Source of the DNA: Gnetum montanum
Taxonomy: Eukaryota > Plantae > Gnetophyta
Length of the DNA stretch: 64,000 bases
Assembly: GCA_015680685.1 (NCBI GenBank)
Contig: MNCI01000738.1
Coordinates: 276,908-340,907 of the forward strand
Direction of reading: 5' to 3'
In this document: positions 1-53,455 of the stretch, one piece after another
Layout: every line of letters starts with the position of its first letter
Position numbering within the stretch: position 1 is the first letter of the stretch
Program-made: the position numbers and the translations under genes
Notes under the pieces: generated by a model
The model's database searches: none
The model's input: only the letters and a program-made list of their open reading frames with translations
Told to the model about the DNA's origin: nothing

Positions 1-1979
1 AGACTCCTGTAATCCTATTTATGACAAGCATCGAATCACCCCTAATCACCAGGTGTCGAACATTGAGTTCGCTAGCAGTTAGTAATCCCCTGAGGAGTCC
101 CTTGTACTCTACCACGTTGTTCATACAGGGAAAGGTCAAGCGATAAGCGTGAAGACACACATCCTCAGGTGATAGCATAATAACTATAGCGACATTGCCG
201 CCTCTAACAGTTGAAGCACCGTCGAAGTACAACGTTGCTTCGAGGCCTGTTAGGATAGGGCTTAAGCTATGTACATGTTCATCCAGAAATTCAGGCTCTA
301 TGGTTTCCTGACTGTCAATAGGTGATGTGACCAATTGGTCAGCTATCGCTTGGCCTTTCGTGGAAGATTGGCCAATGTAATGTAGGTCGAATTCTGCCAT
401 GATAGCTTTCCAATGAGCTATTCTGCTACTTTTGTATAAGTTATGCGTAATGGCCCTAAGAATATTATTTTTATAGATGATGTTGACATGGCTACGAAAA
501 AGATAATGTATACACTTCTTGAGCGTAAATACTAACGCTAAGTAGTTACGCTCTACTTCGTTGTACCTCGTTTCATACGCACATAGAGCATGACTCAAGT
601 AGTAGATGGGTACTTCCGACCCATCATTCCTCCTTTGACAGAGTAACGCAGCTAAGGCTACGTCTGAAGTTGCGAGGTATATATAAAATGGTTGATCCCT
701 TTGTGGCAGAAAAACTATTGGCAAGCATTGAAGCTCTTACTTCAAGCTATCAAACACACGCTGACAATCGTCTGTCCATTCGAAATTAACCCCCTTTTTA
801 ACCAAATGTTGTATAGGGTGTAGCTTGTCAGTTAATCTCAAGATGAATCACTTGATAAACTGTAACCTTCCCTGTAATCCGTGTAATTGCTTAAGACTTG
901 TAGGGGGTGTCTGTTCAACAATGGCCTTGACTTTGTCAGGATCTACGCATATGCCAGTTTTCGATACAACAAAACCTAGCATGCGTCTGGTTTTGACTCC
1001 GAACACACATTTTTTTGGGTTGAGTCGGAGGTCATATTTAGAGCATCTTTTAAGGACTAACTCCAGATCCTCTAAATGATCTTCTGACTTTAATGACTTA
1101 ACAACTATATCATCAATATAATCATTTAGTCTCCCTAGGAGGTAATCCCTATACATGTATGTCATGGCTCACTGATATGTTGCTCCGGCATTTTTTAAAC
1201 CAAAAGGCATCATGGTGTAACAAAAAAGTTCCCCAAGGAGTCATAAATGTCGTTATTAGCTGGTGCTCTGGATTAATGCATATTTGGTTGTAGCCTGAGA
1301 AGCCATCCATGAAGGACAAAAGCGCATGTCCAACGGTTGTATCTACCAATTGATCGATACTCGGCAATGGTAAGTTATCTTTGATTGTAGCTTTGTTCAA
1401 GTCCCGGAAGTCTATGCAGATGCGTATTCCTCCAGTCTTTTTAGGGACCACTACAATGTTAGATACCCAATCTTAGTAATCAACTGCGTAGATAAAACCT
1501 GCCTGGTACAGTTTAGTGATTTCATCACGTACTGCTAGCGCGACTTCTAGTTTGATCTTTCGTGCTTTCTATCTAATGGCTTTAATATGGGGATCTAGGA
1601 TTATGTTGTGTTGAATTAATCTCGGGTCTAGTCCCGACATATCCTCGTATGACCATGCAAACACCGTGATGTTATTCTAGAAAACCTATTTTATGTCATC
1701 ACTTACCTTTTGATCTAATAGAGAACTAACCTTGAGAGTTTTAGTCCCACCCCTATACATAACCACAGAGACCTCGTTGAGTGGATCTTCGGTTACATCC
1801 CCAGCTTCTAGATCTAGCGTGCACGTCGATTGCTCTGGCCAGTCTAGAGATGTTTCCGACATGGCTATGATTGCGTCATTAAGGGCTAGGTTAGTTTCTA
1901 TTAATGTGGGATCAAGCTGTCTAATGATTTCACCATGTGAGCTTGCTAAAACTAGCGGTGCAGATAAAATTTCATCCAT
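1..1979 (-). pseudogene. pol: pol (RT - RNase H - aRH) of Tat-A, with stops and frameshifts
   Basis: RT motifs VPKKTGGIRICIDFRDLNKA, LSFMDGFSGYNQI, YIDDIVV, LRLNPKKCVFG. RH region ~420-720. aRH at ~1-240 reads LYFDGASTVRGG...FPCMNNVVEYKGLLRGL...LVIRGDSMLVI. Confidence 0.93.
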
Positions 1980-2314
1980 CTGTCAATTATCCTCCAAAAT
2001 TGTCAAATAGGAGAGTAATTAGAAAGATACTAAGTTCAATGTGATAAGTGCTTAACGAATAACACTTAGTTTAGTGTACAAGATGTGACGTGGCGTTACT
2101 GAGCGTAAAGCCAACTGAATTTTAAATTTCACGAACAGCTTATGATTAATGAGACCTGATTACGAGGAGATAAGATATAGTAGTTTAGGGTCATTTCGGA
2201 CTGTAATGCGTGCGATATCTGATGCAATTAATGCCTCAATCCTCAGGTTCCAGCTCACACCAACATTAAGGCAAGTCTCGCTGAAATTGGGTATCAAGTC
2301 GGTTAAATTTTGCA

Positions 2315-2322
2315 TATAAGTA
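2315..2322 (+). promoter_or_regulatory. Putative TATA box of the antisense gene
   Basis: TATAAGTA ~150 bp upstream of ATG 2471. A TGACGTGGC (ABRE/G-box-like) motif lies at 2086-2094. Confidence 0.4.
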
Positions 2323-2470
2323 AGCAGTTTTCCTTTAGAACAGGCTGTTTGCTATCGCGAATTTGAATTCTTAGCTGTTACAAAGAGAAAGGAGGAGGAG
2401 CAGAAGACTGGAGTGCATTGTTTGCAAAGGCGTGAAGGTGCGAAAGTGTGAAGGTGTTAGAGCTGTAACA

Positions 2471-5400
2471 ATGGAACCTAAATTGAGAGGGAAGAATGCA
2501 AAATTAGCCAAGATTGACGAGGTGCAAGGGAGCGTGTAGCGTGCATCGCAGGCAATGGTCGAAGTTAGAGACCCTACGCCTTTGAATCGGTAGGTCATCC
2601 CTTGCTTATTTGTGTTACTTTTGCAATGTTTATTCTTGTAGCGTCATCCAGGTAAATTAGAATTTTAGACTATAGACCTCACGTTAGCACGAGGGTTTAT
2701 ACACTAGGATCGCGTCTATCGTCGTTGTCAGGGACAAACCTTGTACTGTTGCAAGGGTTTAGGCGATTTTGACATGAATAACTAAGCGTAATCTATAGAT
2801 TTTCTATATTTTAAGCATGCAAATATGAATCTAGAAATTGATGTGTTTATTGTTTCCTCTATACAATATCATGTTAAGACCTGTCCTAATCTTCTTAGAT
2901 ATAGTTGGGGTTTTATGCTGTGTAAACCCAATCGTACCTAATGTGCCTCCCCCTCAGACTCGGTTGCATGGGAAGGCCATATGGTTTCGAAAGGGTGCGT
3001 TGGAGTTTCTGCAATTTTTACTGCATAACTACAGTGTCATTGTATGGTCACACCTGTCTAGAGATGTTGCCGGCGCCATTCTGGAGCACCTGTTAGTGGG
3101 CTCTACGCAGGGGATTCTGGCTTTCTTGACAGATGGGGCCATCGACACTGGTCATCCCCAGGACCGCGAACTTAGCACCAGAGGATTGAGGTGCTTAAGT
3201 TGGATATGGAAAATGGCTCAGTTTAGCTGTTACCACACATACAACACTTTGTTCGTGGCCCGTCATGTCTCGACTGCCTTCCAGAACCCACCAGGCACGG
3301 TGTATTATTTAGGGGGTAAGTGATTTTATTGATGGTATTGTTATTATATGTCTATTTTCTGAAGCATAAGACAAACGTATGGGATATGGTACAGGTTTTT
3401 TATCCATGAGAACAAGTTAGTAGGCAATGGTGATACCTTAACTTGGACTAAAACGACAATAAAGGCGTTTACCTCTACCAGCAATGTACGTGCTGGTGTA
3501 ATGGGGCAGATCGACTTTGACCTTCATGAGTATCCCACCTGTTATGCTGATGCTTTCGAGAATTGCCAGAATCTCAGGTGGCTACATGACGATTGGACTT
3601 TGGATCCTCCCCTTACCATTGCGAACGTGCAGAGGAAACTTCCTCCATTTCCTTTGCCATTTGGACCTGGTAAAACTGCTGCATATTCTATTGTTGCATG
3701 GTATAATTGTGAATTGTGAATGTCGCATAATAGTATTTTTTGTTTTGACATGTGTCTTGCATTTTTTAGTTAGGAAATCCTGGGAGATTACCCTTACAAT
3801 TTCCAACCGTGAGGCGAATACCCTTTTTCTTCGCTATGGTGACATCAAGGAGGCACAGCGCTGGCTCAGCCATGCCGTGACCCCGGTTGCGGTGGTCACC
3901 AAGCAAGGCTAATGCACTTATTTTTGGCCGTAACCCCTGATGTCCCTGCCAGTGAAATGTTAACCTTGGTCAACTCCTTCAGCGAAAGGGCTGAGCGCTT
4001 TTGTACGCGCGTGCATCACGTACGTGTATATTTTGATATTGATGCCTAGCTTTTTAAAGACCTCTTTGGCATCCCCTCCGATGGCCTTCCTAGAGAGGAA
4101 AAGGCGAAGAGGAGCCTTGCTTTCCAGGAGTTGCTGGAGGAGTGGTTAGGGGCCAAAAAGGAGCCTAAGGGGATCCCTTGTGAGAGGATTGAACTAGAGA
4201 TTGCCAAGATGATTTATTCCCTGTTCTGGGCCCAGGCTTTCCCCAAAACACTCTCACAGGGGAAGTTCTTTTCTATAGAACAGACCCGCATCATGCGGGA
4301 GGTTATGGAGGAAGGGATCCAGTTCAACTGGGCAAGCTATTTTGCTAAGGGATTACGCACTGAGATGATCAGGCTTCGCCAGAAGCTTGATTCCTGTTTC
4401 AACGTGCATTACACCTTCTTCATAGCTTGCCTTCGGCATTTTTCCGAATTTTTGATCATCCAGAGGAATAGGGTTTGGGTACAGCAAGACTGAGATTGGC
4501 TATCCAAACCTTGGATTACCCACATTTTTGGCACTCCCCGTGGACAGGATCCCCCAGAAGGGATTGACGAATCTCTGTCTATAACGACAAGGGATTTCGC
4601 AGCATCTCGAGTGCGAGGTCCCAACAGCGTAGGTGGGGTGATGTCCACTTACACTGACGATGCCTCGTGAGGGAAACGCTTGGTGGTAGAAATTGTAGAG
4701 CCTTTAGCTCGGTGTAAAAGGCTTCGCTTGGTCAAGGCCCCTGTGGAGCCTAGGAGTGGCACAGGTCGAACTATGCAAGTCAGAGTTCAGTGGAGTAAAC
4801 CTCCACCTGGTAAACGTAAAAGAAATGTAGTGAGAGTTATTGTATTACACAATTTTTATTTAAGATATTTTGAATTGTCTAACTATGTATGTGATATGAA
4901 CAGCGAGACCTACGGAGTGATTGACCCCTGAAACAGGGGCAGTGATATTAAGCCATGGGGAAGGGGCCCTAGTTTTGGAAGAAGAGGCCCCAGCTGTTAG
5001 GACTAATGATGCATAGACCATTGTGCATGAGGAGAGGGAGGAGGCGGGTATTGTTGACGCACTCCCCACTGTAACAGGCAGAGGTGGTAAGTGTATTGGA
5101 TGTTTTGAGGTGTTTTTTTAGTAATTATGACTTCTAACTAAATTACGTTACAGGTGAAGAAGATGCATACACGCCCGCCTCTATAAGCAGAACATGGAGA
5201 GAGTTTCCTGACAAATTCGCCTTCATGGAAGGCGTTGTCAGCGATATGATCGAGCACCTCAAACGTGTCGATCCTGGAGCTGGTATGTTATAACTATAAT
5301 AGGTTTATTTTATCAGAAAGTGGTAATGTTTCACTCATATTTATTATGTTTACTATCAGGAGCTCGCCTTTGATGGAACCCAACGGAGCCCATTGATTTG

Positions 5401-6488
5401 GACATAGTGGGGCCTCCATCTGATGGGGCGGTCGTGCCACGCAGCATTTATGAGGAGATGCGTAAATGTGCGTTACGCTCGACTCGCTCCTTGTGGGAGA
5501 GTAAGAGTGTCAATGAAGACCTCTGGAAAAGGCTGCAGAGGTTAGAGAGGGAGAAGGAGTCTCTGGCCAAAGAGGTCGAAGACATAAAATCGCGATGCGA
5601 GTTCCTGCAGGCATGGGCAACGAGTGATGAGGACTGGCGCACAGCTATGATTGACTACTCTCGCTATTGGATCGTAATCAGGAACAGTGTGCAAACCAGT
5701 CAGAAGTTGGTGAAGCAGCGGATGCAAATAGAGTTGTTATGTCAGAAAAGCCAAGACTGGAAGGATTTATGTGCAAGTGTGCAGGAATGGGGGCAAAAAG
5801 AAAAGGATCACAAGCATCTGTATAAGCGAGAAAGTGTCGCTTATCGTCAGCATTACCGTGATTCTGTCGTCGAAGCTCAAACCTTGCGAGTATTCCTTGA
5901 TGTCATTGGTGCGTCTAAAGCTTTTGAGAGGTTCCAGGAGCAGGTGACAGTAAGCGCGTCACTGGAAAGAGAAATGACTCTTCCCTGGAGCGAGACTACT
6001 ATCCCTACTTTCTTCCCTGATCCGCCTCATTGGACTAGTGTGGAAAAGGGGAAGGTAAAGGTTGGAGCTACTCTGGGGAACGACGTATGGTCTGAACTAA
6101 TGGAAGATGAGATTATGCAGCGTCTATGGGTTGGTTTAAAACAGCTCCCTTTTGCTACGAAAGAAGGACCTTTGCGAGTAAGTTTAAACATTATTGCATC
6201 TAAATTTTTCTGATTATGGGGTTAAGTCTTTGCTAATGTATTTGCTGTATGCAGATACAAGAATTAGAGGGCGAAGGTGAACAGGGTGAAGAACGAGCAG
6301 AGGAAGAGGAGCGTGATAGCAAAGAGCATCCTCTTGTGGAGCCGACATCGGAACAAGGACCTCATGGGGATGGCATTCCTCACGAAGGAATACCTCCTAA
6401 GAAGGACAGCCCACTTGAGGACGATTTGTTAGGCTTGGAGCCCGACTTAAGGGATACGGGTGATAGTGGCACCAGTGGGGATGCGTAA
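2471..6488 (+). pseudogene. Antisense multi-exon accessory gene inside Tat-A (FCP1/NIF-like domain + PMD-like domain + coiled-coil + acidic tail), decayed
   Basis: Predicted exons ~2471-2589 (uncertain), ~2874-3315, 3395-3669, 3770-4809, 4904-5086, 5154-5282, 5360-6177, 6255-6488. Introns are short, AT-rich and GT..AG. The last five junctions join in frame. Premature stops are TGA/TAG, and 1-nt frameshifts fall near 3315/3396 and 3908. Confidence 0.85.
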
Positions 6489-6685
6489 CTATGACTTACG
6501 CATGATTTTATTGACTGGAATTGAACAATAGTTATATGAATATTGAAAAGACTAGCATTAAGATATTCTATATCATTTTAGATGCTATTTATTTTATTTT
6601 TTATTGGTTTTATCTCTCGATTTGCAATGCGTAAGTGTAATTGTTAAAAGTTTTGAATAATTTACGTTGTTGTGAAATAGAATTG

Positions 6686-6902
6686 CTAGTTTAAGGCCAT
6701 CGCGGGCCATCGTGTAACATTTTCATAAGATATCAATGAACTAGTTTAAGGCCATTGCGGGCCATGGCTAGTTTAAGGCCGTTGCGGGCCACAACTAGTT
6801 TAAGGCCGTTGTGGGCCTTGGCTAGTTTAAGGCCGTTGCGGGCCACCACTAGTTTAAGGCTGTTGCGGTCCTCAACTAGTTTAAGGCTATCGCAAGCCTA
6901 CT
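6686..6902. repeat. 27-bp tandem repeat CTAGTTTAAGGCCGTTGCGGGCCnnnn
   Basis: Six contiguous copies start at 6741, 6768, 6795, 6822, 6849 and 6876; a detached copy starts at 6686. Confidence 0.95.
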
Positions 6903-7129
6903 GCGTAAGTTTGGAAGCATAATTGATAATACCATAGATTTTTGAGTAATTGAACTAAAATGATCAAAGAGCGTAAATAGCGTATATGAAGAAACGTGAA
7001 TGGCGTAATGAATAGCAAGTGTAAATATATATGAATATATGAAAGAAGATGGACAATGCAAATTGCTAAGCGTAAAAGGAAAAATTAGTAAAGATGTAAA
7101 AATGCGCATAAATACCATTCAGATCGATC

Positions 7130-10100
7130 AATCACTAATTCGTAATTGTTTCTTTATGGCCTTTATGCTCAGTGGTGCATAAGGACGGGAAGGTTTGCAG
7201 TCTGACTCTTCTACACCACCATCCTAAAATGGGAGTTCGACCTAGGCTAGACTATCATCGTTCGTTTCGGTTTGTTTAGGAATTCGGGGATAGGTCTGAT
7301 CGTCCGATGTTTCTATCTCCAAACCCCGCTCTTCCTCGACATTGTTGATAGTCCTGGGGGTGATTTCGTCACCACGTATTACAACCTCTCTCCCTACGTA
7401 GGGTAGGTGTATTTCCTTATGGATTGGTGACGAAACCACCCTTAGTTGTGCTAGCCATGACCTCCCTAGAATCAAGTTGAACCCGGGCATCTCCTTGACG
7501 ACAAGGAATGTGGCATCCGTTGGGAATTGATCCCCTGCCACGAATTTGATGCACACCATCCCTTTGACCTGAACTTGTGCTCCATTGAACGACTTTATGC
7601 ACGTTGTCATTAAGGGACTGATCTGGTTAACCAGACCAAACCTATCCACGATGGGATAAGGAATGACATTTATAGCTACGCCATCGTCCACGTGCACCCT
7701 ACGGATCCAGTATTGACTGACCCGGATGGTGATAAACATGGGTTCAGTTGTCACTTGACCTTTCTCAGGATCATCTTTGATGGATTCATCATGAACGGTC
7801 AACAAGATAGGCCTAGGCCGCTCAACATCTGAGGGAAACATGACAACGTGTATCGCTTCCTCCTCCGCTGGTAAGCTTTCCTCCACAGGTATGGATGTTA
7901 GCATACGGACCATGGCCTCACGGTCTTTTTGAGATGTCATGAGTAGGTCATAGAGGCTCAGCGTTGTGTTTTTTTGTTTCAGAGCCTGTTTGACCTACGT
8001 AAATACGTCGAGCAAGTCCCGTTCTTTGCTGGCTTGTTTGTCCCCCCTGTCTTCTTCCATCTGCCCCAAGAGACGGATCTCCCAGGGTGGAACAGCATCA
8101 GTCGGAGGGTTGTTCTTTTTCTTGGCGAGGGTGGATGGTTGTGTTTTTGCACCCTTATCCTGCCCAAGAGGCGCAGACGAAGGAACAAAGGCCAAATGTT
8201 TGGGCCTAGCGAAGCCTAGCGTAAGGTGATTTTTTGCGGCATTACCAGACGCCTCCCCTTCCTTTTGTTTATTAGGTGATGTGTTAGAGGCTTGCCGCTA
8301 CGTAGAAGGGGCAGCTGATGATTTTGGCACCCTAAGAATGAAAGGCACCTTAGGCGTGGGCGCGGACATAGCCGCGGCTTTACTGTTACTGGGAGGTTGA
8401 GTTGAATCTAGAGAAGGCGCCCGAATGATGAAGGGTGGCCTTGAGGCATCTTTAGCTACCGGTGAAAAGCTTGTCCCCCTTGGTGAGTTGGTAGGTACAC
8501 CAAAAATAAAAGGTTGTTTGTGTGGTACTTTCCTCTCATTGTCTGTACTCACCATGTTGATCGTGTAGGGTGCGTTGTTTGCATTCAACGGATCCTGGTA
8601 CACGTGCAATGCTTGGTTTTTCGAGCATGTTGGACTACTACCGTTTAGTTTCAAATGACCATCATCGATCATGCATTGAATGTTGTCTTTCAATGCCCAG
8701 CAGTAATCTGGGTCATGACCACACAACTGGTGGTAGTCACAAAAATCATCCAGCCTGAAAGACCTCTGAACTGGTGGTTCGTCAGGTAGGGCTAAAGAAT
8801 GATTCTTTAGCAGTTCACAATGACGTCTGTGATGCTTCAGAGCTTCCTCGGATACCTTCTTAGGCTGAATGTATCCTGCCCCTAATAATTTTTTTAACAG
8901 TTCTGAGTGTTTTACAGACAGGGCTATATACTTTGAGCGATCTTTACGCTCAAAGTTTGGTTTTAACTGGGGGGATTTGTAGGAGCAGCTGTGCCTTGAC
9001 TGGTGCTGCTCGCACTAGCCATGGTCTCGGGTGATGGTGTAGGTGCCTTTTTATTTTTGTTCTTTGTGCCCTCAGCCAGTGCAGCTACTATCGTTGTCGT
9101 CGCTTTACCTTTGTCTTTGCCCTTGTTGTGAGCATTTTTGTAGGCGACACACGTCGAGTCCTTGCTAGCCTCCGCAGTGTCCTGAATGCTTTTGGTCTAG
9201 GAAAAAGCCTGATGTAAGGAGCTGGGGGAAAGATAATACAGCTTAGATTTGATAAAATCGTTAACTGCTCCTTGGAATATGGCTAGCAAATGGGCCTCCA
9301 CGATTGGCTCACGGATTTCATTCAAAGTAGTAGTCCACCGCTATATAAACTTTTGGACTAGTTCGAGGGGGTCTTGTTTCACTCCCATAAGTTGATCTAA
9401 CGTGACTTTCGGCTTTAGGTTGTATTTAAAGTGGGTCACGAACTGTGTCAAGAGCTCTTCCAAGGTTGAGATGGAAGAGCGAGGGAGGGCTCGATACCAA
9501 TCCAAAGCTTTCCCTGTTAGAGACATAGCAAAGACATGGATAATCGTGTGAGGCCACTATTGTAACAACAAGGATTCAGATCTAAAGGTGACCAAGTGAG
9601 CGTTAGGATCTCCCTCCCCATTATACTTGGTAAAATGAGGTAAGGACATCCTTGGGGGCAATGACAGCATGGGGACCGTTGGACTAATGGGATCATCTTG
9701 ATAGAAGTCCATGATCTGTATAGTGTCTGAGCCAGCGGCCTTAAGGCGTCTAACCTCCTTGGTGAGGGTTTGAATAAGTAAGAATGCTTGATCTAAGCTT
9801 ATAGATGAAGATGCTTGAGTAGGGGGAGCAGGGGGTTGAACCGAAAGAGCTGTGCCAGGGAGTGGAAATGGAGGAATGGGTTGACTGGTAGGTGGTGCAG
9901 CGGGGATCCCCGCGGACGAAGCTACCTGAGAAGACCACCACCCACTGGGTTGCGCAGAGAGATTAGCCACCGCTGGCTGTGCGGGATAGGGATAGGGATA
10001 TTGTGGGATCATCTGCGGAATATGCGTTGCAGGTGCAGCCAAGGGTTGCATACCATATACCGCAGACTGGTTATGTTGTGCCGTGGGGATGATCCACTAA

Positions 10101-10876
10101 CTCACGATGGGCTGTTGTATGGATGTCTGTGGTTGAACGACGGCTATGATCTGTTGGGTTGGAGGGGGTGGTAGCGATAAAGTCTGCACCGGGCAAGTTG
10201 TAGATATGGCATGAGGTTGGATCTGAGGGATGAAATAAGGCACGGTGGATACTGGGACCACTGACGGAATGCTGATTACGCATGGTGATGAAACCGCCCC
10301 CATGTTATTTTGGGGTATTTACACCTGCAGCCGAGATGGCTGTGTAGTGGCTTGTGGGACAACAGGAACGTGAGTTTGTGTGGTCACGGCGGGATTAAGA
10401 TGGGAGGCTTCTCTGTTGAGAGGGAATAAGGGATTTATGTAGGTATGGGGGCTCAGAGTGTGATATGAATGTTCAGATTGGGCTGCAAATTCATCATCCT
10501 CTTCCTCCCCATTCTGGGATTCCAACATAGCTCGTGTAGCCTGGCTCCTAGCCATGACCAACTGTGTTATAATTTCGTGGTGATGTTCTGTTAAAGGAAT
10601 AATGTCGTAGGCTGTTGGGGTAAAATCCTGACCCCCTCTATGGATGAGCTCAAAGTTTCTTTTTGCTTCGATCTCGGCTCGACTAAGGGCAAGCTTTGCC
10701 TAGATCTTGACGCATATGAAGTTATATTCCTCAGGCGTCATGATGGTGAAAATAGGGTCTTTGCCCTGTAGTCTCAATGACCGACGCGATGGTCCCTAAG
10801 GTTCTACAACACCAGAGGCTGGTCGGGTGATGGCGATAGGGTTTACAGATGTGGCACCCGAGTCAGTGGTAATCAT
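7130..10876 (-). pseudogene. gag: gag-protease of Tat-A
   Basis: ATG 10876 in GCCGCCATG context; Pro/Gln-rich N-terminus; FTKYNGEGDPNAHL and SLTGKALDWYRALPRSSI capsid motifs; Tat-type knuckle FCDYHQLCGHDPDYCWAL; protease RVHVDDGVAINVI...FNLILGRSWL. Mostly one frame, broken by TAG/TAA stops. Confidence 0.92.
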
Positions 10877-11134
10877 GGCGGCTGTGGTTGTGTATGCAGA
10901 ATCCATTGAACCAGTGGGTTAATGACAACGAGTGACTAGATCTAAAAGACGATGGACAAAGAAGATCGCTATTAGGCTTTCTACCTTGTAGGATTCCAAA
11001 GGAATCGTTATTGTGACCGATCTACACTGCACAATATTTCATAAACTTCCCTGGAGGTATTACGTTCACATTTTTGGAGACGCGGGTATAGATCGCTAAC
11101 AGGGCTACCCGTAAAAATACGAATCAGAGCCTAC

Positions 11135-11152
11135 GCCCTCCTTCTAGCGCCA
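11135..11152 (-). other. Primer binding site complementary to the 3' end of tRNA-Asn
   Basis: Minus strand TGGCGCTAGAAGGAGGGC, 6 nt after the LTR-terminal ...TTACA; matches the plant tRNA-Asn 3' end CCCTCCTTCTAGCG-CCA as I recall it. Confidence 0.85.
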
Positions 11153-11158
11153 GAAAAT

Positions 11159-12759
11159 TGTAACGATGGAAAATGTCGGCAGCTGGAATACCAAACAAAA
11201 TCCATGTACACAGTCTTAACCACGGATTCGTGTGAGGGCTGTGCTAGAGAAAACGAATCCGTAGTGTCTTGAATGGTCTTATCGATCAGACAGGGACTTA
11301 CTAAATCAGCAAATCGATGAAGATTGTAGACATTTTGTGAGACGATCTGATTCGATAAATTGTGAAAGGAGAGGAAAATGATGTAAATAAATTGCAATAA
11401 TGACAACGTTAACATGACAAAGGGAATTGGATCTAAGAGCAATGTGTGATTTCAAGATCTATACTTTGACCCGAAGGAAACGAGTATTTTGTATACAAAG
11501 TTACAATGGGAAGATCCCGATTATCTTGTGTGGAAACATACACAAAATAATAAGAAAATTGTTTAACAAGGAGTGCATAATAGAGCTTGTTCTACCTCAA
11601 AAGCCAAAGATGGAGTGCAAGGAAGGTCAAGCTCGGACGCCTATCAACCAACTATGTCTGACCAATAGATCTTGCCAACCTCACCAGGCGATCTCACGAT
11701 CTCTGATCTATCTTCTTCGCTTTGGATAGTCTCTGCTCAAAACTGCCAAGGATCACCAATGGGAGAACTGTATCTTCGCCCAAAAGGGGATGATCGCTCC
11801 TACTGCCAAAATGCTCCAAAAGAAAATGTTTTTTGTTTCTGCTCAAGGATGATAACTGCCAAAAAGTTGAAGATGCTAACTGCTACTCTCTCAAAATGTC
11901 CAGAAGTCCCTTTGCTAAAAAAGTCATCCTTTTTTCTTCGCCAACTGAGGTATTTATAATATGCAGAAAAGGCACAGCCTTGATGACACGTATATCGAAT
12001 TTTCCAAATACCGTTGACTTGACGAACTGGCTATGTGTCGTCACATGGCAACGTACGTTGTCAAAACTTTGGTGAAGTTGCTTCATGATTACGCAAAAAT
12101 ACGCTTATCAGCGTATCGCGCGTATGGATAGCAAATGCGTAACTGCTTTAGCCGACTTTACACTGTATTTCACTTGTTTACGCTGTGTCACGTGGCAAAG
12201 CATAACAAAGCATGGAAATAGTGAGTCTGGCTATTTTATGCTCCTTTACATAGGAAAGCGTAGTGAAGCGTAAAACATGATCAACCCGGTGATAAGTTAC
12301 GCTGGCGTACGCTGTGTAGCGTAACGAGCGTAAGGCGATCAATCTGCAAAAGAAAATGGCCATTCTATCATGCTTCCTTTGGACTTTCCCTTTGACTCTT
12401 TTTGAAGCTCATTACGCTACTTTACGTAACAGAGCATAAACCTGACCCTGGGCAAAAGACTTAGGAGGATATGCGAGAACTCGCATATTACACTGTTCAG
12501 GCCTTAAACTTCACCAAATCTGCTGAAGTAAGTCACCTTCTAATGTCAGACTATGTTAAGAAAAATTACACTAAGTTTCATTACGCTATGTTGCATAATG
12601 TAGCGTAAAAATAGAAACATAGTAAAAATTGGAATTTGCAAGGAAGTTGGAGACTTGATGCCGAGCGCCGTTTCGCCTTGCTTTGCCTTGTTCTACCTTC
12701 CAGAATTCTGTCACGAACTTTTGCCTGAATCGTGAATCTTCACCTGAGGCCGATTCACA
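11159..12759 (-). repeat. 5' LTR of Tat-A (outer boundary approximate)
   Basis: TG at 11159 next to the PBS; minus-strand TATAAATA at 11951-11958; candidate terminus TTCACA at 12759 where CpG content drops. The partner LTR is not in the window. Confidence 0.7.
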
Positions 12760-14240
12760 ATTTTCACGGTGTTTTATATATGGCTCAAAAGAATTACTTT
12801 CACAATAACCTTTTTACTTATAAATACCTTTGTATCTCATCTTTTCCAAATTTGATTGGAATTGGTATAGAAAATGCCATGGCAAGACTTCTTATAAGCA
12901 CAAAACATCACCATCCAAACCTTCTTATTTTGCTAAGATATGTAGGTATCGATATTACTGCTTATCCAAGGCCCATGGTGGACATAATAGATGTTGTATA
13001 TCACTTGCAAGGAATCTTGCAAGCATGTTATATGTTGCAACTTTCATTCTCATTCTTGGATTCTCCTCTAGATCATTTCTCTTTAGGGGTATCATACACC
13101 TTGTCAAAATAAGATTTTGAACCTCCATGTTGTTCTACCATATCTTTTTGATTGCAAGGAAAATTAATATATATCTTCTTGATCATTAAACACTATTTTC
13201 TTTCATCAACTAATTCTCCCACTACATTATCTAATTTTAGTAATATATAATTACATTATCTAATTTTAGGAGTATGAAATTATATTATCTTAATTCTTAA
13301 TGATCTTTATACCCCCATTAAGACATTAACTCTAGCAATATAATTAATTATGTGCCATAGAGATCTTAAGGGTATCTACAAAGCTTATTTTTCCAACAAT
13401 GTATGATAGTTATCCTTATGTTGTCGACTTTTAAGGTATAGTTCATGATATCATCAAATTATCAAGTAACCATATGATAAATCTGACCTCACCATTGTGT
13501 CCAAAGGGTTGAAATCTATAGCAAAAAATTCTTCATTCATAGAAAAAGGCTTTCAAAATCAAAAGTTATGGATTCTAGAGTTTAGAACCTTTTGTCACGA
13601 AAAACAAGATTTTCCAAGGGGTAACCTATCCTAGTTCTACTCCACAGCAAGCATACTTTATTATGAAATTCTTATCCATGTTGCTACCAAGGCATCAAAT
13701 TCTAATTTTGAATATTATTTCTATGTGTTCTTGATTTAAAATAATGGTTTGATAATGGAAATTTTAAATTTTTCATTAGTTGATGGGAATTTCAAATTTT
13801 CCTTTAGTTGATGGAAAATTTAAATCTTTTGTCTATTGACACCAAATTTTTCCATTGTGCAGTAGGCAAGGATGGTGCTAACAATAACCACTATAGTGTG
13901 TGGGTGGAGGCATTCGAAGCAAAGCATGCAACATTGGGAGCAAATCAGCAAGTAGGACGATGGATTCTAGGGGTTAGGATGGGTGTGTTAATGCACAGAC
14001 TATCATTTTCAGCATCAATATGTAGGTGATTGTGGAGGTTGTCATGGAGGAATCATTGCATGGGCATGATTAAGGTTGTAAACAGGTTAACATGGCCTAC
14101 ACATGGGCTATGTGAAGGGCTAGCATGGCTCATATAGCATTTCTATGGCTTGCGTGGCCCATGGTAATGTACTGCATTGCGGGGAAGATTTTGAGCACTA
14201 GAATTGACTATTATTAGTGACATTGGAGGCATTGGAGGTA

Positions 14241-14535
14241 CCCTTTATGAGTAGCATCATTGGTGCCTACGAAGTGCCATGGAAGCCCTTTATGGATTAC
14301 ATCATCTTTGCCCACATAGCACTGAGCCCTTTATGGACAACATTGTCAATGCTCATGGAGTGTTAGGAGAGCCCTTTATGGGTAGTGGCGTTACTGCCTA
14401 TAGAGCACTAGGAAAGCCCTTTATGAGTGGTTCCATCAATTACCATGGAGTGTTGGGGAGTCCTTTATGGATGACATTGTTAATGCCCATGAAGACTTAA
14501 TGGAGCCCATTATGGACAATGATATTGATGCCTGT
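14241..14535. repeat. Decayed ~45-bp minisatellite with core GCCCTTTATGG
   Basis: Cores at 14241, 14286, 14327, 14372, 14417, 14461 and 14506 (spacings 41-45). Confidence 0.85.
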
Positions 14536-22483: not shown

Positions 22484-23405
22484 TAATGAGTTTCAGTCTT
22501 TTGCATCAACTAGGCCCTGTCGATGCAACCTGTTGTGTCAACTAGGTCCCATGGACTAGGCCCTATCAATGAGGCCCCGTTGATGTAGTCTATTATGTTG
22601 ACATGGCCCCATCAATGCATGGGTCTATCCTAGTCTATTAATACATGCTCACAAGCTACATTTATGGCATCAATTATCAGAGTAGTAGCGAAGCTTTTGT
22701 AGTTTGTCTATTTGAAAGTTAAAATATTTTTCCTAATTGTTTGCACCAGGAGTCATTGAGTGTATGAATCTTTATTCAAGCACAATAGTGTGTGTGGCAA
22801 TGAAGATGAACTTCTTGAAAAACCTTACAACATTTTGGATAGCTTAAATGTTTCATTTATGCATTTAATGTTTTCAATTATTTATACAATGTGTTCTTGT
22901 AATTAAGCTAATAAAGTAATTAAGCAAGATAAGCTAGATAGATTAAATACATAAGTAGGAACACTTTGAGTGTAACACATATTCACTTGGTAATCCCAAC
23001 AATGTTATTGCATGGTATGCTTGGTCATGTAGCGGTTGGTAACCTAGCAGTGGATACATGGGTTCAGGGCATGTGCAAAAAGTGGGACTAGATGCTTATG
23101 TTAGAATTTCTTAGATACTAGTTATTTAGTTAAATTAAATTAGTTAATCCAATTACTTTTATCTTCCTTTAAATACTAAAATCATAAAATAAAAAATGAT
23201 AAATATTAGATGCCTCAATTACACTTAACCATACTGGTATATGTTACAAGTGTAATTGGGAAGACAACAAATGATCTTAAGGCAAGGTTCACTTCCTAAA
23301 AGACTGTTGTTCTAGAAACTATAAATTTCATGGAATTTTACTAGATCACACATAAACACTTTGTGATTCTTATGGTTGGGTGTAGGGGTACCTCACCACT
23401 CATCA
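22484..23405 (+). repeat. 5' LTR of Athila-1
   Basis: T(A)ATGA...TCATCA; colinear with 34862-35764. Confidence 0.92.
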
Positions 23406-23406
23406 T

Positions 23407-23424
23407 TGTTGCCTTTGCCAAGGA
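23407..23424 (+). other. Decayed tRNA-Asp PBS
   Basis: TGTTGCCTTTGCCAAGGA versus the Athila consensus TGGCGCCGTTGCCGGGGA, directly after the LTR. Confidence 0.7.
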
Positions 23425-23986
23425 CTTTGTTTGTTGAATGTGTGCTATCTAGGATTAGTGAATACTATCAATATCATTGGATGAACTCAAGGTCAACATC
23501 ACTCTCAAATGACATCTAATTTTATTTGTTTTGCAAAATTTCTTCTTCTCACAGGCATGAAAATGTCAAACTACTAGTCCCACATGAGTGCAAAGTAGTA
23601 TATACTCATCTAGATGAGTATATATTGGACTTCACCTTTATCTTACATCAACATGAATAACTATGATGCCATGATATGGAGGGCAACATCATCTGACCTC
23701 CTGATTGATTTGTACCAAGGATGCTATTTCAAACTCTTAAGAAGTTGGGAATTCTAGATTTTCATGAGGAATACGTTGTGAATGATTATGACTCTCAGGA
23801 CTACAATCCCACTAAAACACAATGTAAGTGATATCAACATCAAAAGAAGCATCATGAGGCTATGAAGAAAAAAATTTCACTAATCCCCTATTCCTACTAG
23901 ATTAAGATAACAATGAGGATCCTCCCTTTGAAGATTCTCAACATGAAGATTCTCCACACCTTGTTGTTGGTAATGAGCATGCGACC

Positions 23987-26900
23987 TTGAATCTACAATC
24001 AACTATTCATAAACTAGGTTCAAGAAAATGTGGTAGTCAAGGTAGGGACTCAGGTAAACATCACAATAGTAAGGGATCTAGGGATGGAGGTCATAATGAG
24101 CAAAAACGTAGTGGCCAATACCATGGTGGTGATTGTGGTCCACCTTCTCCTCCATCCTCTTCATCTGATTTTAAACATTCCTCCTCATCTACTAGTTCTC
24201 ATAGAAGCCATTGTCGAAATAATCATGATGAAGGTGATCAACAAGACAACAATGATTTTCAAATCCATCAAGAATGCAGAGGTGATAGAAACCATCATTA
24301 ACATCATCAACACAATCATGATGATGAACCTCTGCTACCAAATCAAAGCATGCTCAAAATTGCAGAGGTAGTAAAGATCCCAACCAAGCATATGAAAGAT
24401 AGATAGATCAAGTGCTTAGACATGAATAGTATTCCATGATTTGAGGGGAATACAATTTTGATTCATAGAACTATCTACAAGATTTCCATGATGTTTGTGC
24501 CTTACAAAACATTGAAAATGACTAGAAAAAACTCAAGCTTTTCCCTAGGACACTCATTAAGAAAGCTAAGAGCTGGTACTACTCCCTAGAACTGGAATCC
24601 ATTCACTGATATAGTACCATGTTAGAGCTATTTAATGACAAATACCAAATGTACTCGAGAGTGTCTAATCTAAGAAGGAAAATCCAATGCTGGAAATAGG
24701 GAATACATGAACACTTGGATGCCACCATGGATAGATACTATTCACTCTTACACCCATGCCCTAGCCATGGTTATTCTTAGAGGGAACAAATTCACCACAT
24801 CATAGATGGGCTTAGAGAAAAATGAGAAGAACTTTTGGGGTGTATGCGGAAGGGAGATTGTCTGATCTAAGAGCTCATCATATCTAAAGGCTGATAGAGT
24901 AGGTAGTAAAAGAAGAAGGTGACTTATGAAAATGGGAAAATGTAGAAGAGTATAATAGAAACCTTTCCATCCAGAAATGGGAGGTCCAATTTTATGATGA
25001 GGGAGAGTTATCACTTGATGAAGTGGTGAACAGGAAAACCTTGCCCATTCAAAAATCTATTTCTAATATTTTGGCAAAGGTTGATAACTTATGGGACTCT
25101 TTGGATGAAAAATTCTAAACTACTATGAAGATTGCTAAAGAATCTAGAGAGAAAAATAGTGATCATAATCATAGGAGGTGAAAAGAAGCTAAACATGCCT
25201 ACCAAAGAGATAAAGGCAAAGCTGCTACCATAGAAGAAGTTGTGGAAACTAACTCTAATGATGAAATTGGATGTGACATCTATCAATATGAATATACAAA
25301 AGGGTGTTTTCCTATAGTGTCAAACTTACAAGAGTCTAAGGTGTATGCATTGAATCTCTGATTAGCATGTAGGCAAGCATCTAGATGATTACCTTATCCT
25401 CAAGGTAATCCAAGATAGTTCCACTAACAACAACAAGCTTACTACCCAAGTGGAGCTCCACCACATCCATATGAACAATATCAATAATGCAACAACCACA
25501 ATCATGGGGAATGCCATTACCAAGGTAGTAATATCCTTACAGAAAACCAAATCCATATGGATACTATGTTTAGCAACCCATCTCTCCAAGACATTTTTCA
25601 AGTCATGCCTCATTTCAGCATCATTAGTACCCTCTGAAGTATCATTGAACACATTCAACATCTACTTAAGAAGAAAACCCATATTCATATCATCCTCTAC
25701 ATTCATCTACATACATAGCTTTGCCCTTCACCTAGTTAGCTCTTGCTCTGTCCATGTAAGGTGAGATTCCTTCATAGTTGCAACAACAAAATGCTACAAG
25801 GGTTGTACATTCACAATTGGCTTTTTAGCTGAGTGGTTCATACAATTGATCTAGAAAAAGATCCTTCTTCCAATCCAATAGTCCTCTCCAACCCTCGTAA
25901 CCTAGTACAGTTGATTGCCCTACATCTCTAGTACCCTCATCCTCTACATCAAATACCTTTGAGTGCCCTTCAAATCAAACACCACCTTAGCTCCCCACTA
26001 TGATGCTAACTCATGCTATTTTTGATTGGATCAAGGCTAGCAATCTTTTCGCTAAAATATTTGACCTAGGAAGTCCTTTCATTTACTTATAGATCACTAG
26101 ACATGAGCCATGCAAGGCTCTTTTTGATTTTATTTCTAGTGTCAACCTCATCTCTCATGACATTTACAAGGCTAGAGCCTACCACCTCCCAAGAAGAGAA
26201 ATATCCATTTAGAATTGGCAAACCAGTCAATCACTATTCCTTTGGGATTACTGGAGGACATTGTAACCACAATTAGTGGGTGGTCCTATCCTACCAATTT
26301 TCTAGTGATTAAGGTTGAAAACTACAAAGGTGACTTTCCCATCATTATGGGAAGAGCATGGTTAAGCACTATAGATGCATGTATGGACATAAGGAACCTC
26401 TCCTTGGAAATCTCCAAGGAAAATGAATTTGAAAAGTTAGAGAAGAAGTTTATTCTATGCATTGTGTATAGTGATAATGGATGCAATTGTGTGCAAAATA
26501 TTTGGTCCACCAAAAGTACAGACATCAAAGTATGTAATTAGTGTGCACTAAAAATAGATATTCAAAGGTGTCTGTACATAGCAGCCACAAAACAAAAGGG
26601 CACCTAGTGGCTGATAGCTAACTCAAATAGTAGCACATTATGCATGGAACCAACTAAGAGCCTAACATGTGCTTATTTTGAAAGCATGAATGAACTTAAG
26701 AAAGGTCATCACTAACTCTATGAAGATGAAGATGATGACACCTATTAGGGAGAGTTGAAAATCCTTTGATAATTTCAAGCAGGAGCCCCTAGAACTAAAA
26801 TTCCTACCAACCAACATGGAATATGAATTTTTAAACAATGGTAAATTAGTCATAATTAATGTCAAACTTGCTCCTGAACAAAGAGAAAATCTATTTAAGG

Positions 26901-29560
26901 TGGTTAAAAAATGGCCAAAAAAATTTTCTTTGTCATAGCCTAAGTTGATAGGAATCAATCCAGGGATATGCCAACATTGCATTTACACTAACCTAGCCAT
27001 GAAGCCAAGAACGCAGCCATAGAGATAGCTAAATTCAAAATTGAAGCATATCATAAAAGAGAAAATAGAGCAACTCCTCAATATGGGGTTCATTTATCCC
27101 ATTGTAGATAGTGAGTGGGTTAGCCCATTTATAATTGTGCTAAAGAAAGTTGGCAAGTGGTAGATCTGCATTAACTTTAGGCTGTTGAATACGGTAATAT
27201 TTAAAGATCATTTTCTATTGCCATTTGTGGATCAAGTGTCGGACATCATATCTAGGCATTGCTATTATAGCTTCTTGGATGGTTATAGTGGCTATAACCA
27301 AATCCAAATTGTGCTAGAAGATAAGGCCAAGACAATATTCACAAGTTCCTGGGGGACTTTTGCATATTGTAAGATGCCATTCGGTTTGTGCAATACCCCT
27401 ACAACATTTCAACACCTAGTCCTTAGTATTTTCCAATAGTAGATCAGTAGTGATGTGGAAGTCTCCATGGATGACATCCAAACCTATGAAGCTACATTTG
27501 GGCAAACCTTGAACTGCCTTGAGCAAGTATTAAAGAGATGTGTCGAAACAAATTTGCAACTCAACTATCAAAAAAATCATCTTATGGTCCAATAAGGCAC
27601 TATGTTAGGTTACCGAATTTCATAAGAAGGGATTAAGGTAGACCTAGCAAAGATAAAGGTCATCCAATGAATTACACGCTAACCAAAGATAGTCAAAGAT
27701 GTTAGATCATTCCTTGGACACACTGGCTACTACCAGCGACTCATAGAGAATTTTTATAAGATTACAAAGTTGTTGGTTGAGCTGACAAAGAAAGATGCTC
27801 TGTTCATCTAGACCAAGGAATGTAAACATGAATTCCAGGAATTGAAGGAGAAACTTGTAGAAACTCCAATTCTATGGGCACCAGATTGGTCTAGACCATT
27901 TTACATAATAACAAATGCATCTAATTATGATTTGGAAATGGTGCTCATGTAGTGGATGTAATATGAATGTAGTCGATGATAAGAAACATTCATATTACAT
28001 CCACTACATGAGCCAACACATTGTAGATGCATAGTTAAATTACACCACTACAAAGAAAAAATTAATGGTAGCGATGTACACTTTTAAAAAGTTTAGGCAC
28101 TATGTGCTTGGCTATAAAGTATTTGTGCACATGAATCATAGTGAAATTTACTTCCTCATGAACAAGCTAGCCATGAGCCCTTGTATCATATAGTGGCTTG
28201 TGATCTTGTAAGAATTCAATCTCACAATGGTAGATCAAAAAGGAACCAAAATTGTGGTCACTAACCACCTCTCTAACTTAAGATGGGATAATAAAGAGGA
28301 GGACAGCCCACTCTCTGATCAGCTTCTAGATGAACTCGCATTTATAATGATTAAACAAAATAGAAACAACATGGTGAAATGGCATCCTTAGCTATCTTAT
28401 CACTTAAGAGATGCCACAAGATCTTGACTTTAAAAAGAAGCAATAATTTCTTCATTGGACCAAATACTTCATGGAAATCAACAAACATCATTACAAGGTG
28501 TGTGTTGATGGCCTAATTTGTTGGTGTGTCCTTGATGAAGATTAATTGTGTGTGCTCTAGGATGCTCATGAAGGACCTTGTAGAGGCCAATATGTAGAGA
28601 GACATATGGCCATAAAAATCCTAATGGCAAGATACTATTGGCCTAGAATATTCAAAGATGCCCACAAGTTTGTTTGATCTTGTGAATGTTGTTAATGAGA
28701 TGGTGGGATGACCACTCAAATGGAAGGTCCTCAATAGTGAATTCAACCATTAGAGCATTTTGACATATGGGGCATTAACTTCATGGGTCCCATCATATCC
28801 ATTTCCAATGGGAAGGCATATATCATTGTAGTAGTTGACTATACAAAAAATGGCTAGACGTAGTAGACATTACTGATTGTACATCGTCCACTATTTCTAG
28901 ATGTATACAAAAAAATGTTGTAAATAGGTTTTGGATGCCATGTACACTAATTTTTAACAATGGAACTCATTTCATAGGAGCCACTTTTAGAAAGTTGATG
29001 CAATGCTTGGGGGTTAAACATAAATTAACAACACCATACCATCCCCAAGCTAGTGGTCAAGTAGAGGTAACTAACTAAGAGATCACAAAGATCTTAATAA
29101 GGACCATATGCAAATATAGAAGAGATTGGAGCACCAAACTCAAGAATGCTCTCTGGGCCTATTTCTCAACATGGAAACTCCCTATTAGCTACTCTTCCTA
29201 CAAGCTAATGTATGGAAAACTTCCAATACTCCACAATTCAGTTCGAGCTCTGTACACTCTTAACAATTTGTGATATAGATCTTGACCTAAGTCTAGCACA
29301 AAAAGAAAGATTGATCAACCTAAATGTGCTAGAGGAAAATTGATTGGTGGCCTTATCTTTGAATCAGATGTACAAGGCATTCAACAACCAAAATCATGAC
29401 CTCAAAATATGAAAAGTAACATTTCAACTAGGAGCTAAGATTCTCTATTGGAAACTCACACATGTAACCCAAAAGAAAAAAAATTCAAACATTGTGGGAG
29501 AAAGCTTATATAATTGATCAAACCTTTTCCTTTGGGGACATGTTAATCTACAAACCTAAA
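23987..29560 (+). pseudogene. gag-pol: gag-pol of Athila-1 (boundaries approximate)
   Basis: gag KLKLFPRTL..KAKSWY (~24530); PR LANQSITIPLGLLEDI...PIIMGRAWL (26215); RT SEWVSP, KDHFLLPF, YSFLDGYSGYNQI, MPFGLCN, MDD (27110-27480); RH LNYTTT (~28035); INT DIWGINFMGP, TTPYHPQASGQVEV (28760-29070). Confidence 0.92.
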
Positions 29561-34650: not shown

Positions 34651-34861
34651 TGCTATTTAATTTTGAAGAATCATGTCATGGTGTTCAATTTTGTGTTATG
34701 AATATCATAATTTTTGTAATGTGTTGGTCTATACACTGGGCACTTAGTACTGTTATGTCTATGTTATTTTGTTTTGTTATGTCGAAAACTAGTTAATAAT
34801 TTCATACCTTCCCAATTTTATAAAGAACTAAAGGATGAGTTTTCATTTATTCATGGGGGTA

Positions 34862-53438: not shown

Positions 53439-53455
53439 TGGAACTAGAAGAAGGG
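53439..53455 (+). other. Decayed tRNA-Asn PBS of Tat-B
   Basis: TGGAACTAGAAGAAGGG versus TGGCGCTAGAAGGAGGG. Confidence 0.75.

Follow-up and report, generated by a model that had tools for sequence, protein, structure and literature searches.

At one end of the window, the 64,000-nt stretch of Gnetum montanum DNA analysed here, lies an LTR retrotransposon that reads along the minus strand. Its 5′ LTR (11159–12778, minus strand; about 1.6 kb, ends approximate) runs to ...TTACA before the primer-binding site (PBS); reads carry varied flanks behind 12774. The PBS (11135–11152, minus strand) is complementary to a tRNA 3′ end, which we take to be that of tRNA-Asn; tRNA and Rfam searches gave no matches. 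A decayed gag–protease (gag–PR) frame with one frame change near 9010 follows (7128–10720, minus strand), matching Retrotrans_gag at 30.7 bits, above the Pfam cut-off, and two protease families below theirs (Asp_protease_2, E = 0.15; RVP_2, E = 0.17). pol (1–1979, minus strand) consists of an ATG, a linker, reverse transcriptase (RT), the native RNase H (RH) and an additional RNase H (aRH), the ‘retroviral’ order of Tat elements; the Pfam matches are RVT_1, RT_RNaseH and RVT_3, the last two in that order within 2–736. The window ends before the integrase and 3′ LTR of the element. With LTR, tRNA PBS, gag, PR (weakly supported) and RT in gypsy order, and with the aRH besides the native RH that marks Tat, the element is, as judged from its sequence, a Tat clade (Ty3/gypsy, OTA) retrotransposon. 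The order RH then aRH is common to Retand and to the Tat elements of ferns, hornworts and gymnosperms (PMC10508981).

Between gag–PR and RT lies a spacer of 5,136 bp. The last part of the gag–PR frame (9014–7131, minus strand, four internal stops) closes with a TGA at 7130–7128 and pol restarts at ATG 1979, in frame with RT, as a preliminary description of the locus had it. That description took the 5.1 kb for an expanded, Ogre-like intron that serves as a cargo bay, without LTRs or terminal inverted repeats (TIRs) around it. We likewise found neither an LTR nor a long direct repeat at its bounds, and no convincing TIR: the best inverted match between its two ends (17 nt, 82%) is at chance level. 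The 5.1 kb is not passive filler, however, as it holds a predicted eight-exon gene in antisense orientation to the element.

The predicted gene spans 2471–6488 on the plus strand, with about 1,078 codons in eight exons separated by seven GT–AG introns. Exon 1 (2471–2589), the least certain, begins with ATG 2471 and contains one TAG. Exon 2 (2879–3315), whose acceptor may lie 11 bases upstream with the phase unchanged, encodes a putative NIF domain, and exon 3 (3395–3669) is open and without a family match. Exon 4 (3770–4809), with a frame change near 3900 and three stops, encodes a middle domain without a named family; exon 5 (4904–5086), with two stops, an acidic low-complexity linker; and exon 6 (5154–5282) is open. 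Exon 7 (5360–6177) is coiled-coil-like, and its single stop, at 5371, is missing from nearly all sister reads. Exon 8 (6255–6488) encodes an acidic tail (32% D+E) and ends with TAA. A likely 3′ UTR (6490–6680, plus strand, 75% AT) is followed by a tandem array (6682–6899) of seven copies of a 27–28-bp unit, the number of which appears variable among sister copies, given DNA joints inside the array. The gene faces pol head-to-head across a 491-bp spacer between the two ATGs (1980–2470), which is likely the promoter of the antisense gene and might be divergent, and gag–PR tail-to-tail, with the array between the convergent ends. A 10-nt micro-exon (2642–2651) and an acceptor at 2898 were dropped because they break the phase and cut motif I of the NIF domain; joints at 3304–3367 and 5252–5358 were rejected as splices, being present in DNA contigs and without GT–AG ends.

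Several features support this gene model. First, AT content is 65–77% in the seven introns versus 46–55% in the eight exons, and T exceeds A on the plus strand in all seven introns (320 versus 224, p = 2 × 10−5), contrasts that are inflated because introns and frames were picked by eye before the statistics. Second, this copy keeps the phase at six of the seven junctions (for the best open frames, with the first acceptor shifted by one base to its AG), and the seventh, out of phase here, comes into phase with one extra base present in five of eight sister reads from one run. Third, stops number 7 in the 1,069 codons of the gene model (0.7%), every one TAG or TGA, versus 249 in 5,309 (4.7%) for the five remaining frames. 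This is close to the 4 in 628 of gag–PR, which agrees with the earlier observation that the insert has decayed much as the element has. We conclude that the 5.1 kb very probably holds an integral antisense gene of the element. The earlier reading of a passive expanded intron, the content of which is not a gene, would accord with the lack of a mature antisense transcript among the RNA reads described below, but the in-phase introns, open exon frames and NIF domain on the plus strand largely refute it, and we regard it as extremely improbable.

The encoded protein would comprise, in order, the NIF domain, the middle domain, the coiled-coil-like part and the acidic tail. Exon 2 scores 23.5 bits against Pfam NIF (PF03031; cut-off 21.8), all six of its phmmer matches among 1.84 billion representatives carry NIF, and it is 25–32% identical to its best matches, with motifs collinear across 145 aa. 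Its fold model (pLDDT 73) has CTDNEP1, SCP1 and FCP1 as top PDB matches, a result that is not independent of the sequence match because NIF proteins made up the alignment behind the model; a single-sequence prediction was unusable (pLDDT 42). In sister RNA reads the motif I region is encoded again, by differing sequence. By these matches and the fold model, exon 2 is an FCP1/SCP-type NIF domain with a HAD fold. The canonical residues of FCP1/SCP phosphatases are DxDx(T/V) at motif I and DD at motif IV. In the alignment, this copy keeps the first Asp of motif I and lacks both its second Asp and the DD of motif IV; its nearest matches show DxNG at motif I. Enzyme activity finds no support given these missing residues, and the domain is probably phosphatase-like but inactive as an enzyme. 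It shares a collinear domain and the same fold with plant-type FCP1-homology (NIF) proteins, SCP1, CTDNEP1 and FCP1, and differs from them in those residues and in its fusion to middle, coiled-coil-like and acidic parts.

The remaining parts have few relatives. Coiled-coil Pfam matches to exon 7 are weak and below cut-off, and a metagenome match to the same exon was set aside as chance (17 residues, no further similarity). Homologue searches with the middle domain found none, and Atlas gave no more than leads, the neighbours of exon 4 there being unnamed Streptophyta proteins. No near host homologue of the antisense gene was found, its best matches being the distant ones given above, and PDB sequence searches gave no matches. 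Scans of viral sequences found no relatives of the element and turned up, in a viral contig, a single NIF protein, which is distant. Pfam matches to PMD and Transposase_28 (TRP28) were absent from the antisense gene, as was PMD from two short ORFs near the LTR.

In DNA data the insert behaves as part of a multi-copy family, in support of the preliminary description. Median summed DNA-contig depth is 11,396 in the 5.1-kb spacer (11 bins), 20,202 in gag–PR (8), 7,329 in the LTR (3) and 43,204 in pol (4), as computed from 26 of 30 bins with boundary bins excluded. Only 1% of the aligned DNA contigs continue into unlike sequence, and no direct joint of PR to RT occurs among the 15 joints listed of 72. 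A further full-length copy did not appear in these data. Eight runs, with four organism labels and from three studies, contain 26–45% of the words of 1500–7600, above the 16% for which the PR and RT flanks could account. Because the insert is as deeply covered as gag and the LTR, and in several related species, the 5.1 kb is family anatomy across these species and not a private insertion. Four exons of the antisense gene were compared with the window's two further gypsy elements and matched neither.

Such a gene could also be a passenger: an old nested piece of a DNA transposon (a MULE- or CACTA-like accessory gene) or a captured host gene, hitch-hiking without a role in a non-autonomous lineage, where it broke gag–pol, which is then supplied in trans. 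Plant DNA transposons commonly carry accessory genes of several exons, an Atlas lead at 0.84 (a lead only) is a Ulp1-like/DUF1985 cluster, and no spliced RNA was found in the runs described below. A comparison for purifying selection among the 33 listed exon variants found 13 synonymous versus 9.5 expected (p = 0.12) and 16 at the third position (p = 0.05; pol control, 12 of 28), which leaves room for a gene without a role. Against such an origin, searches of the 5.1 kb for marks of a nested DNA transposon or LTR element found no TIRs, LTRs, transposase or gag–pol domain; the gag–PR, pol and antisense frames are about equally intact; the spacer is deep and present in several species; and there are no near host homologues, nor any for the middle domain. 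We consider this origin without a role improbable, although it may be right on the origin and wrong on the present role.

An integral antisense gene leaves pol behind 5 kb of opposing sequence, and the minus strand offers candidate splice signals. As had been noted earlier, ...TTGACAG precedes ATG 1979, with a branch-like CTAAT about 39 nt upstream, inside the head-to-head spacer. By a home-made, simple plant-like score, the acceptor at 1980 ranks 5th of 276 minus-strand AGs in 1975–7130; a YAG directly precedes 7 of the 210 ATGs of the element. The acceptor thus exceeds background without standing out, and the 15 bases leading up to its AG are purine-rich. A candidate donor (GT at 7115–7114) adjoins a U-rich stretch (7015–7115, minus strand, 50% U), and donor and acceptor are both in phase 0. 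Two in-frame TGA codons, at 7130 and 7121, stand just before this donor, so that a Gag–PR/RT fusion is possible only if both arose through decay in this copy. Splicing of pol across the 5.1 kb, from 7115 to 1980, is plausible from these signals, and we give the production of pol by splicing an even chance.

RNA reads bear on both genes. In six RNA runs carrying the species label of the source, no splice junctions were found, including those of the antisense introns, at a depth below 5 in the pol acceptor bin and below 0.4 in the donor bin. Reads pass unspliced through introns 2 and 6 (63–94 reads at 3372–3384 from 6–8 start places, in one run), so the aligned RNA is pre-mRNA, element-sense RNA or DNA and not mature antisense mRNA. 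In the deepest run, 607 of 726 RNA reads are less than 90% alike to this copy.

Alternatively, with the same integral antisense gene in place, the 491-bp spacer would be a divergent promoter that yields a separate pol mRNA from ATG 1979, and gag–PR RNA would be partly terminated at the tandem array. The own in-frame ATG of pol, its head-to-head arrangement with the antisense ATG and the two stops ahead of donor 7115 fit this proposal, as do 20 of 26 minus-strand first mates that begin at 2404, inside the spacer, in one run. The latter look like library artefacts because the same run has a larger start pile-up with adapter-like ends at 3507, inside an antisense exon; strand is uncalibrated in these reads. 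A fairly strong acceptor and a U-rich-flanked donor in the right phase both exist and also speak against the proposal, and the precedent of Ogre, as portrayed in passages of PMC6317226, favours splicing. We rate a divergent promoter with a separate pol mRNA as a live alternative, if a rather unlikely one.

In Ogre (Tat IV/V), as in the present element, Gag–PR is parted from RT–RH–aRH by a non-pol region, which in Ogre can be removed by splicing, according to passages of PMC6317226 and PMC4408406. RH is again followed by aRH, which in Ogre lies between RH and integrase. Unlike the 5,136 bp found here, however, the Ogre spacer has a mean of 274 bp with no gene reported in it; 89% of Ogre elements have a tRNA-Arg PBS, whereas the PBS here is another; and the extra ORFs of Ogre are placed 5′ of gag or 3′ of pol, with PMD as their domain. 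Because the element misses these usual marks (PBS and spacer size), the term ‘expanded Ogre intron’ is an analogy rather than shown descent, although the in-phase donor at 7115 does permit an Ogre-like splice.

Retand, Grande, RIRE2 and TatIII elements (TRP28, PMD–coiled coil, gene23) resemble the present one in having an antisense accessory gene that includes a coiled-coil part and stands beside tandem-repeat arrays, in a 3–6.5-kb region found in most copies, as passages of PMC11963269, PMC7264820 and PMC4408406 describe; in the same accounts, gene23 of Grande is driven by a promoter of its own and its product is nuclear. The ORFs that these passages describe sit between pol and the 3′ LTR and were detected as plain ORFs, whereas the present gene lies between PR and RT and has seven predicted introns and a NIF domain in place of a PMD or Transposase_28 match. 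A Tat element of orchids, Gypsy_Pa_2799, has likewise acquired an extra gene with an enzyme domain of host type, an AlkB m6A demethylase ORF; as portions of that report (PMC9289625) present it, the domain is different, gag–pol is one ORF and activity was demonstrated, whereas none is indicated here. As a functional analogy only, with no homology claimed to this animal element, CERV of Caenorhabditis elegans Cer1 is an accessory protein of an LTR retrotransposon that is made from spliced mRNA and without which intron-retaining genomic RNA is not exported (passages of PMC10309623).

Taken as a whole, we lean towards a model in which an eight-exon antisense accessory gene between gag–PR and RT encodes a nuclear RNA regulator and pol is made by splicing out the 5.1 kb. 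Introns opposite the genomic RNA strand are not spliced from genomic RNA and survive reverse transcription, and antisense is the orientation that allows a retroelement to keep a multi-exon gene. Like maize Grande gene23, the gene would be driven by its own promoter, in 1980–2470. The splice from 7115 to 1980 would, in some of the transcripts, fuse Gag–PR to RT, as in Ogre, and the unspliced RNA would be both genome and Gag–PR message. The antisense protein might be a scaffold or decoy that binds either the tail of RNA polymerase II in its phosphorylated form or the partners of that tail, and it might help transcription or the export of the intron-retaining genome; that it is a nuclear regulator acting through its NIF domain is a tentative suggestion, on the unlikely side. 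More speculatively, and in our judgement unlikely in this full form, a non-angiosperm Tat lineage may house a seven-intron antisense gene in its gag–pol intron, with a captured RNA polymerase II CTD-phosphatase-like protein, a counterpart of HIV Tat/Rev, setting how much spliced pol mRNA is made relative to unspliced genome through the host transcription–splicing machinery and the 27-bp array serving as its landing pad.

The antisense extra ORF is a known theme of Tat elements; what is new here is its position, introns and domain, with a function that we infer. Our literature search found no antisense spliced gene between PR and RT and no NIF domain in a retrotransposon; some survey supplements, Steinbauerova 2008/2011 and subscription gymnosperm-genome papers lay outside it and could hold a prior description. 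NIF/HAD is absent from Neumann’s table of extra-ORF domains and from the domains named in the consulted portions of the orchid screen’s text (PMC9289625). What antisense extra genes do for plant LTR retrotransposons is still to be settled, as passages of PMC7264820 and PMC11963269 put it. Most such genes have domains of unknown function, and the recognizable phosphatase-family domain found here gives a direct handle for tests. The antisense gene also raises the question of how pol is produced across 5 kb of opposing gene. Finally, surveys, as described in passages that include PMC11963269, took as extra ORFs plain frames of 250 codons or 600 bp that stood 5′ or 3′ of the polyprotein only, and one, by part of its account, removed elements with nested insertions (PMC6317226). 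A spliced gene between PR and RT would escape such screens, so giant plant genomes may commonly contain this design without its having been annotated.

On the minus strand, the element has an LTR at about 12778–11159 (approximate ends), a PBS read from the sequence at 11152–11135 and a gag with a Pfam Retrotrans_gag match (30.7 bits). The protease (PR)-like region, whose Pfam matches fall under the cut-off, ends at TGA 7130–7128. Pol restarts 5.1 kb from this stop at ATG 1979, in frame with reverse transcriptase (RT), native RNase H (RH) and additional RNase H (aRH), and the order of RH then aRH marks a Tat element of 'retroviral' order. These positions bear out the preliminary description, which had placed the gag–PR stop near 7130 and the pol restart at 1979 and had noted neither LTR nor TIR around the intervening DNA; our repeat comparison of the ends of the stretch likewise found no LTR, TIR or long direct repeat bounding it. 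The acceptor-like AG and branch-like CTAAT described ahead of the pol ATG are also present, the AG ranking fifth among the 276 minus-strand AGs of the stretch by an ad hoc simple score and the CTAAT lying ~39 nt upstream.

The PR–RT gap of this multi-copy Tat family holds a predicted accessory gene, antisense to the element, with seven introns and a phosphatase domain. A composition scan of its plus strand found GC-rich blocks interleaved with short AT-rich blocks, and the gene model runs on that strand from ATG 2471 to TAA 6488 with seven GT–AG introns (2590–2878, 3316–3394, 3670–3769, 4810–4903, 5087–5153, 5283–5359 and 6178–6254). Introns and frames were picked by eye, so the contrasts in this and the next two paragraphs are descriptive and not blind tests; exon 1 is the least certain. 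All seven introns are 65–77% AT, compared with 46–55% in exons, and all seven carry more T than A on the plus strand (320 versus 224, p = 2e-5). Plant introns have an excess of T over A on the sense strand.

The best open frames keep phase at six of the seven junctions (the first with its acceptor at the AG at 2878); at the seventh, one extra base, present in five of eight reads from a single sister RNA run, puts the junction in phase there. Together the exons add up to 3,235 bases (about 1,078 codons) and contain a single frame change near 3900.

Stops number 7 in 1,069 codons of these exons, compared with 249 in 5,309 in the other five frames. Gag–PR has 4 in 628 and pol, over two stretches, 6 in 641, in agreement with the earlier impression that the stretch has decayed like the element. 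Almost no sister read or contig shares the stop at 5371; in one run it is absent from 20 of 21 reads. The gene's ATG and the pol ATG point apart, head-to-head across 491 bp, and a tandem array of seven copies of a 27–28 bp unit (6682–6899) separates the converging ends of the gene and gag–PR.

Exon 2 encodes a NIF domain of the FCP1/SCP type, which scores 23.5 bits in Pfam against a cut-off of 21.8. All six phmmer matches among 1.84 billion representatives contain NIF, at 25–32% identity. Plants account for three of them (sunflowers, Sphagnum and ragweed; two without a functional name), and the other three are unnamed. Two of the unnamed matches are not evidently plant, and a viral contig matched in our scans (L002, 8001–8162) codes for a distantly related NIF protein of broadly this type. 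Alignment shows the motifs to be collinear across the entire domain. A structure model (pLDDT 73) has CTDNEP1, SCP1 and FCP1 as top matches, a fold match that is not independent of the 10-sequence alignment on which the model was built. With D-I-V-G in place of DxDxT/V at motif I, and no DD at motif IV in this copy, exon 2 probably encodes a pseudophosphatase. The middle domain gave no Pfam match and no homologue by word search, its Atlas neighbours being unnamed Streptophyta proteins (0.90, weak recognition); exon 7 has weak coiled-coil matches only and exon 8 encodes an acidic tail.

The earlier reading of the stretch as an expanded intron serving as a cargo bay stands in part: an in-phase donor exists, but the stretch holds a predicted antisense gene. 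The candidate donor is the GT at 7115. It precedes a 100-base segment with 50% U and shares phase 0 with the AG at 1980; we give even odds to pol being made by splicing between the two. Such splicing would fuse Gag–PR to RT in an Ogre-like manner; in Ogre, a spacer with a mean length of 274 bp is removed by splicing from some of the transcripts (PMC6317226). The fusion requires that two in-frame TGA codons, 15 and 6 bases ahead of the donor, both represent decay. There is a smaller but appreciable chance that a separate pol mRNA arises from an internal promoter in the head-to-head spacer.

RNA was compared in six runs. Four of them gave 726, 151, 35 and 131 reads over 1850–7400, mostly <90% alike, and no splice joint over that interval, at depths of <5 at the acceptor and <0.4 at the donor. 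Unspliced reads cross introns 2 and 6 of the antisense gene, and in one run, of unrecorded library type and uncalibrated strand, the first mates lie mainly on the minus strand across cargo, gag and pol alike. In one study minus-strand first-mate starts pile up at 2404 (20 of 26), inside the head-to-head spacer, and at 3507 (65 of 93, and another run has 7 of 8), and the same study has adapter-like loose ends at 3063; the pile-ups could be artefact or transcript ends.

We placed 100,493 contigs of one DNA run on 1–13000, 1% of which continue into unlike sequence; no PR-to-RT joint occurs among the 15 of 72 joints listed. Median summed depth, which is not copy number and is inflated in pol by other families, was 11,396 for the spacer, 20,202 for gag–PR, 7,329 for the LTR and 43,204 for pol (26 of 30 bins). 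Part of 1500–7600 is present in 12 of the 23 sequencing runs listed, and eight of these (four organism labels, three studies) contain 26–45% of its words, the PR and RT flanks making up 16% of the interval; the best-matching run may be the source sample itself. Depth, contig continuity and word shares together indicate that the spacer is multi-copy, diverged and common to related species, at the scale of short contigs, full-length linkage being beyond their reach; within that scale, this is as would be expected of an integral part of the family. A test for selection counted 13 synonymous changes among 33 listed exon variants, not significantly above the 9.5 expected (p = 0.12); its pol control gave 12 of 28. 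Bin 5209–5642 has a depth of 30,935, nearly 3x the spacer median; this segment may also occur in other families, or may be unusually conserved.

In the published accounts examined, Retand, Grande, RIRE2, Ogre and TatIII have antisense extra ORFs next to tandem arrays, always 3′ of pol or 5′ of gag, encoding PMD, TRP28 or SMC-like domains (PMC11963269, PMC4408406, PMC6317226). Those ORFs flank the polyprotein, whereas the predicted gene here sits in the PR–RT gap and has introns and a NIF domain. Arabidopsis PMD proteins reportedly cooperate with a phosphatase (PMC7156037). In the literature covered by our search, we met no description of an extra gene located between PR and RT, nor of one that bears introns or a NIF domain; an orchid Tat element is known to have captured an enzyme (PMC9289625). 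The element resembles Ogre in part and Retand in part and is classed as neither. Its nearest RH–aRH protein found is 39% identical. An order with aRH ahead of RT, as in a neighbouring element of the window, is reported from gymnosperms and clubmosses only, and the RH–aRH order was not found in Pinaceae or Cycas (PMC10508981, PMC13468544). The two orders together make the host likely a gymnosperm other than a pine, or else a clubmoss.

Other repeats share the window. A second, older Tat element (47643–62342, plus strand; LTR-like pair ~12.6 kb apart, 83–88% identity) carries aRH ahead of RT, followed by RH and integrase. A repeat pair at 52676–53424 and 62364–63111 (9.69 kb apart, 82–89% identity) overlaps its region, as does a run of N at 49825–50171, an assembly gap or mask that accounts for six overlapping ORFs called there. 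A decayed gypsy element (22550–35575, plus strand; LTR-like pair 12.36 kb apart, 80–86%) retains gag, RT, RH and integrase, gave no match in an aRH search and appears Athila-like by layout, with coding-like, coiled-coil-like pieces in the ~5 kb between integrase and 3′ repeat. A near-perfect 135-bp tandem duplication (98%) lies at 44641–44911 and a degenerate 45-bp repeat cluster at 14241–14514.

Being opposite to the genomic RNA, the antisense gene's introns would outlast reverse transcription, the converse of a published reporter logic (PMC12786077). The gene would probably be driven by its own promoter, as is Grande gene23 (PMC7264820), and its product would likely be nuclear. A CTD-phosphatase-like domain short of full catalytic residues, joined to a coiled coil and an acidic tail, would fit a scaffold that binds the phosphorylated polymerase II tail or its partners. 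Tentatively, such a scaffold might aid transcription or export of the RNA that keeps the 5 kb intron, a role for which CERV of Cer1 would be a functional analogue (PMC10309623).
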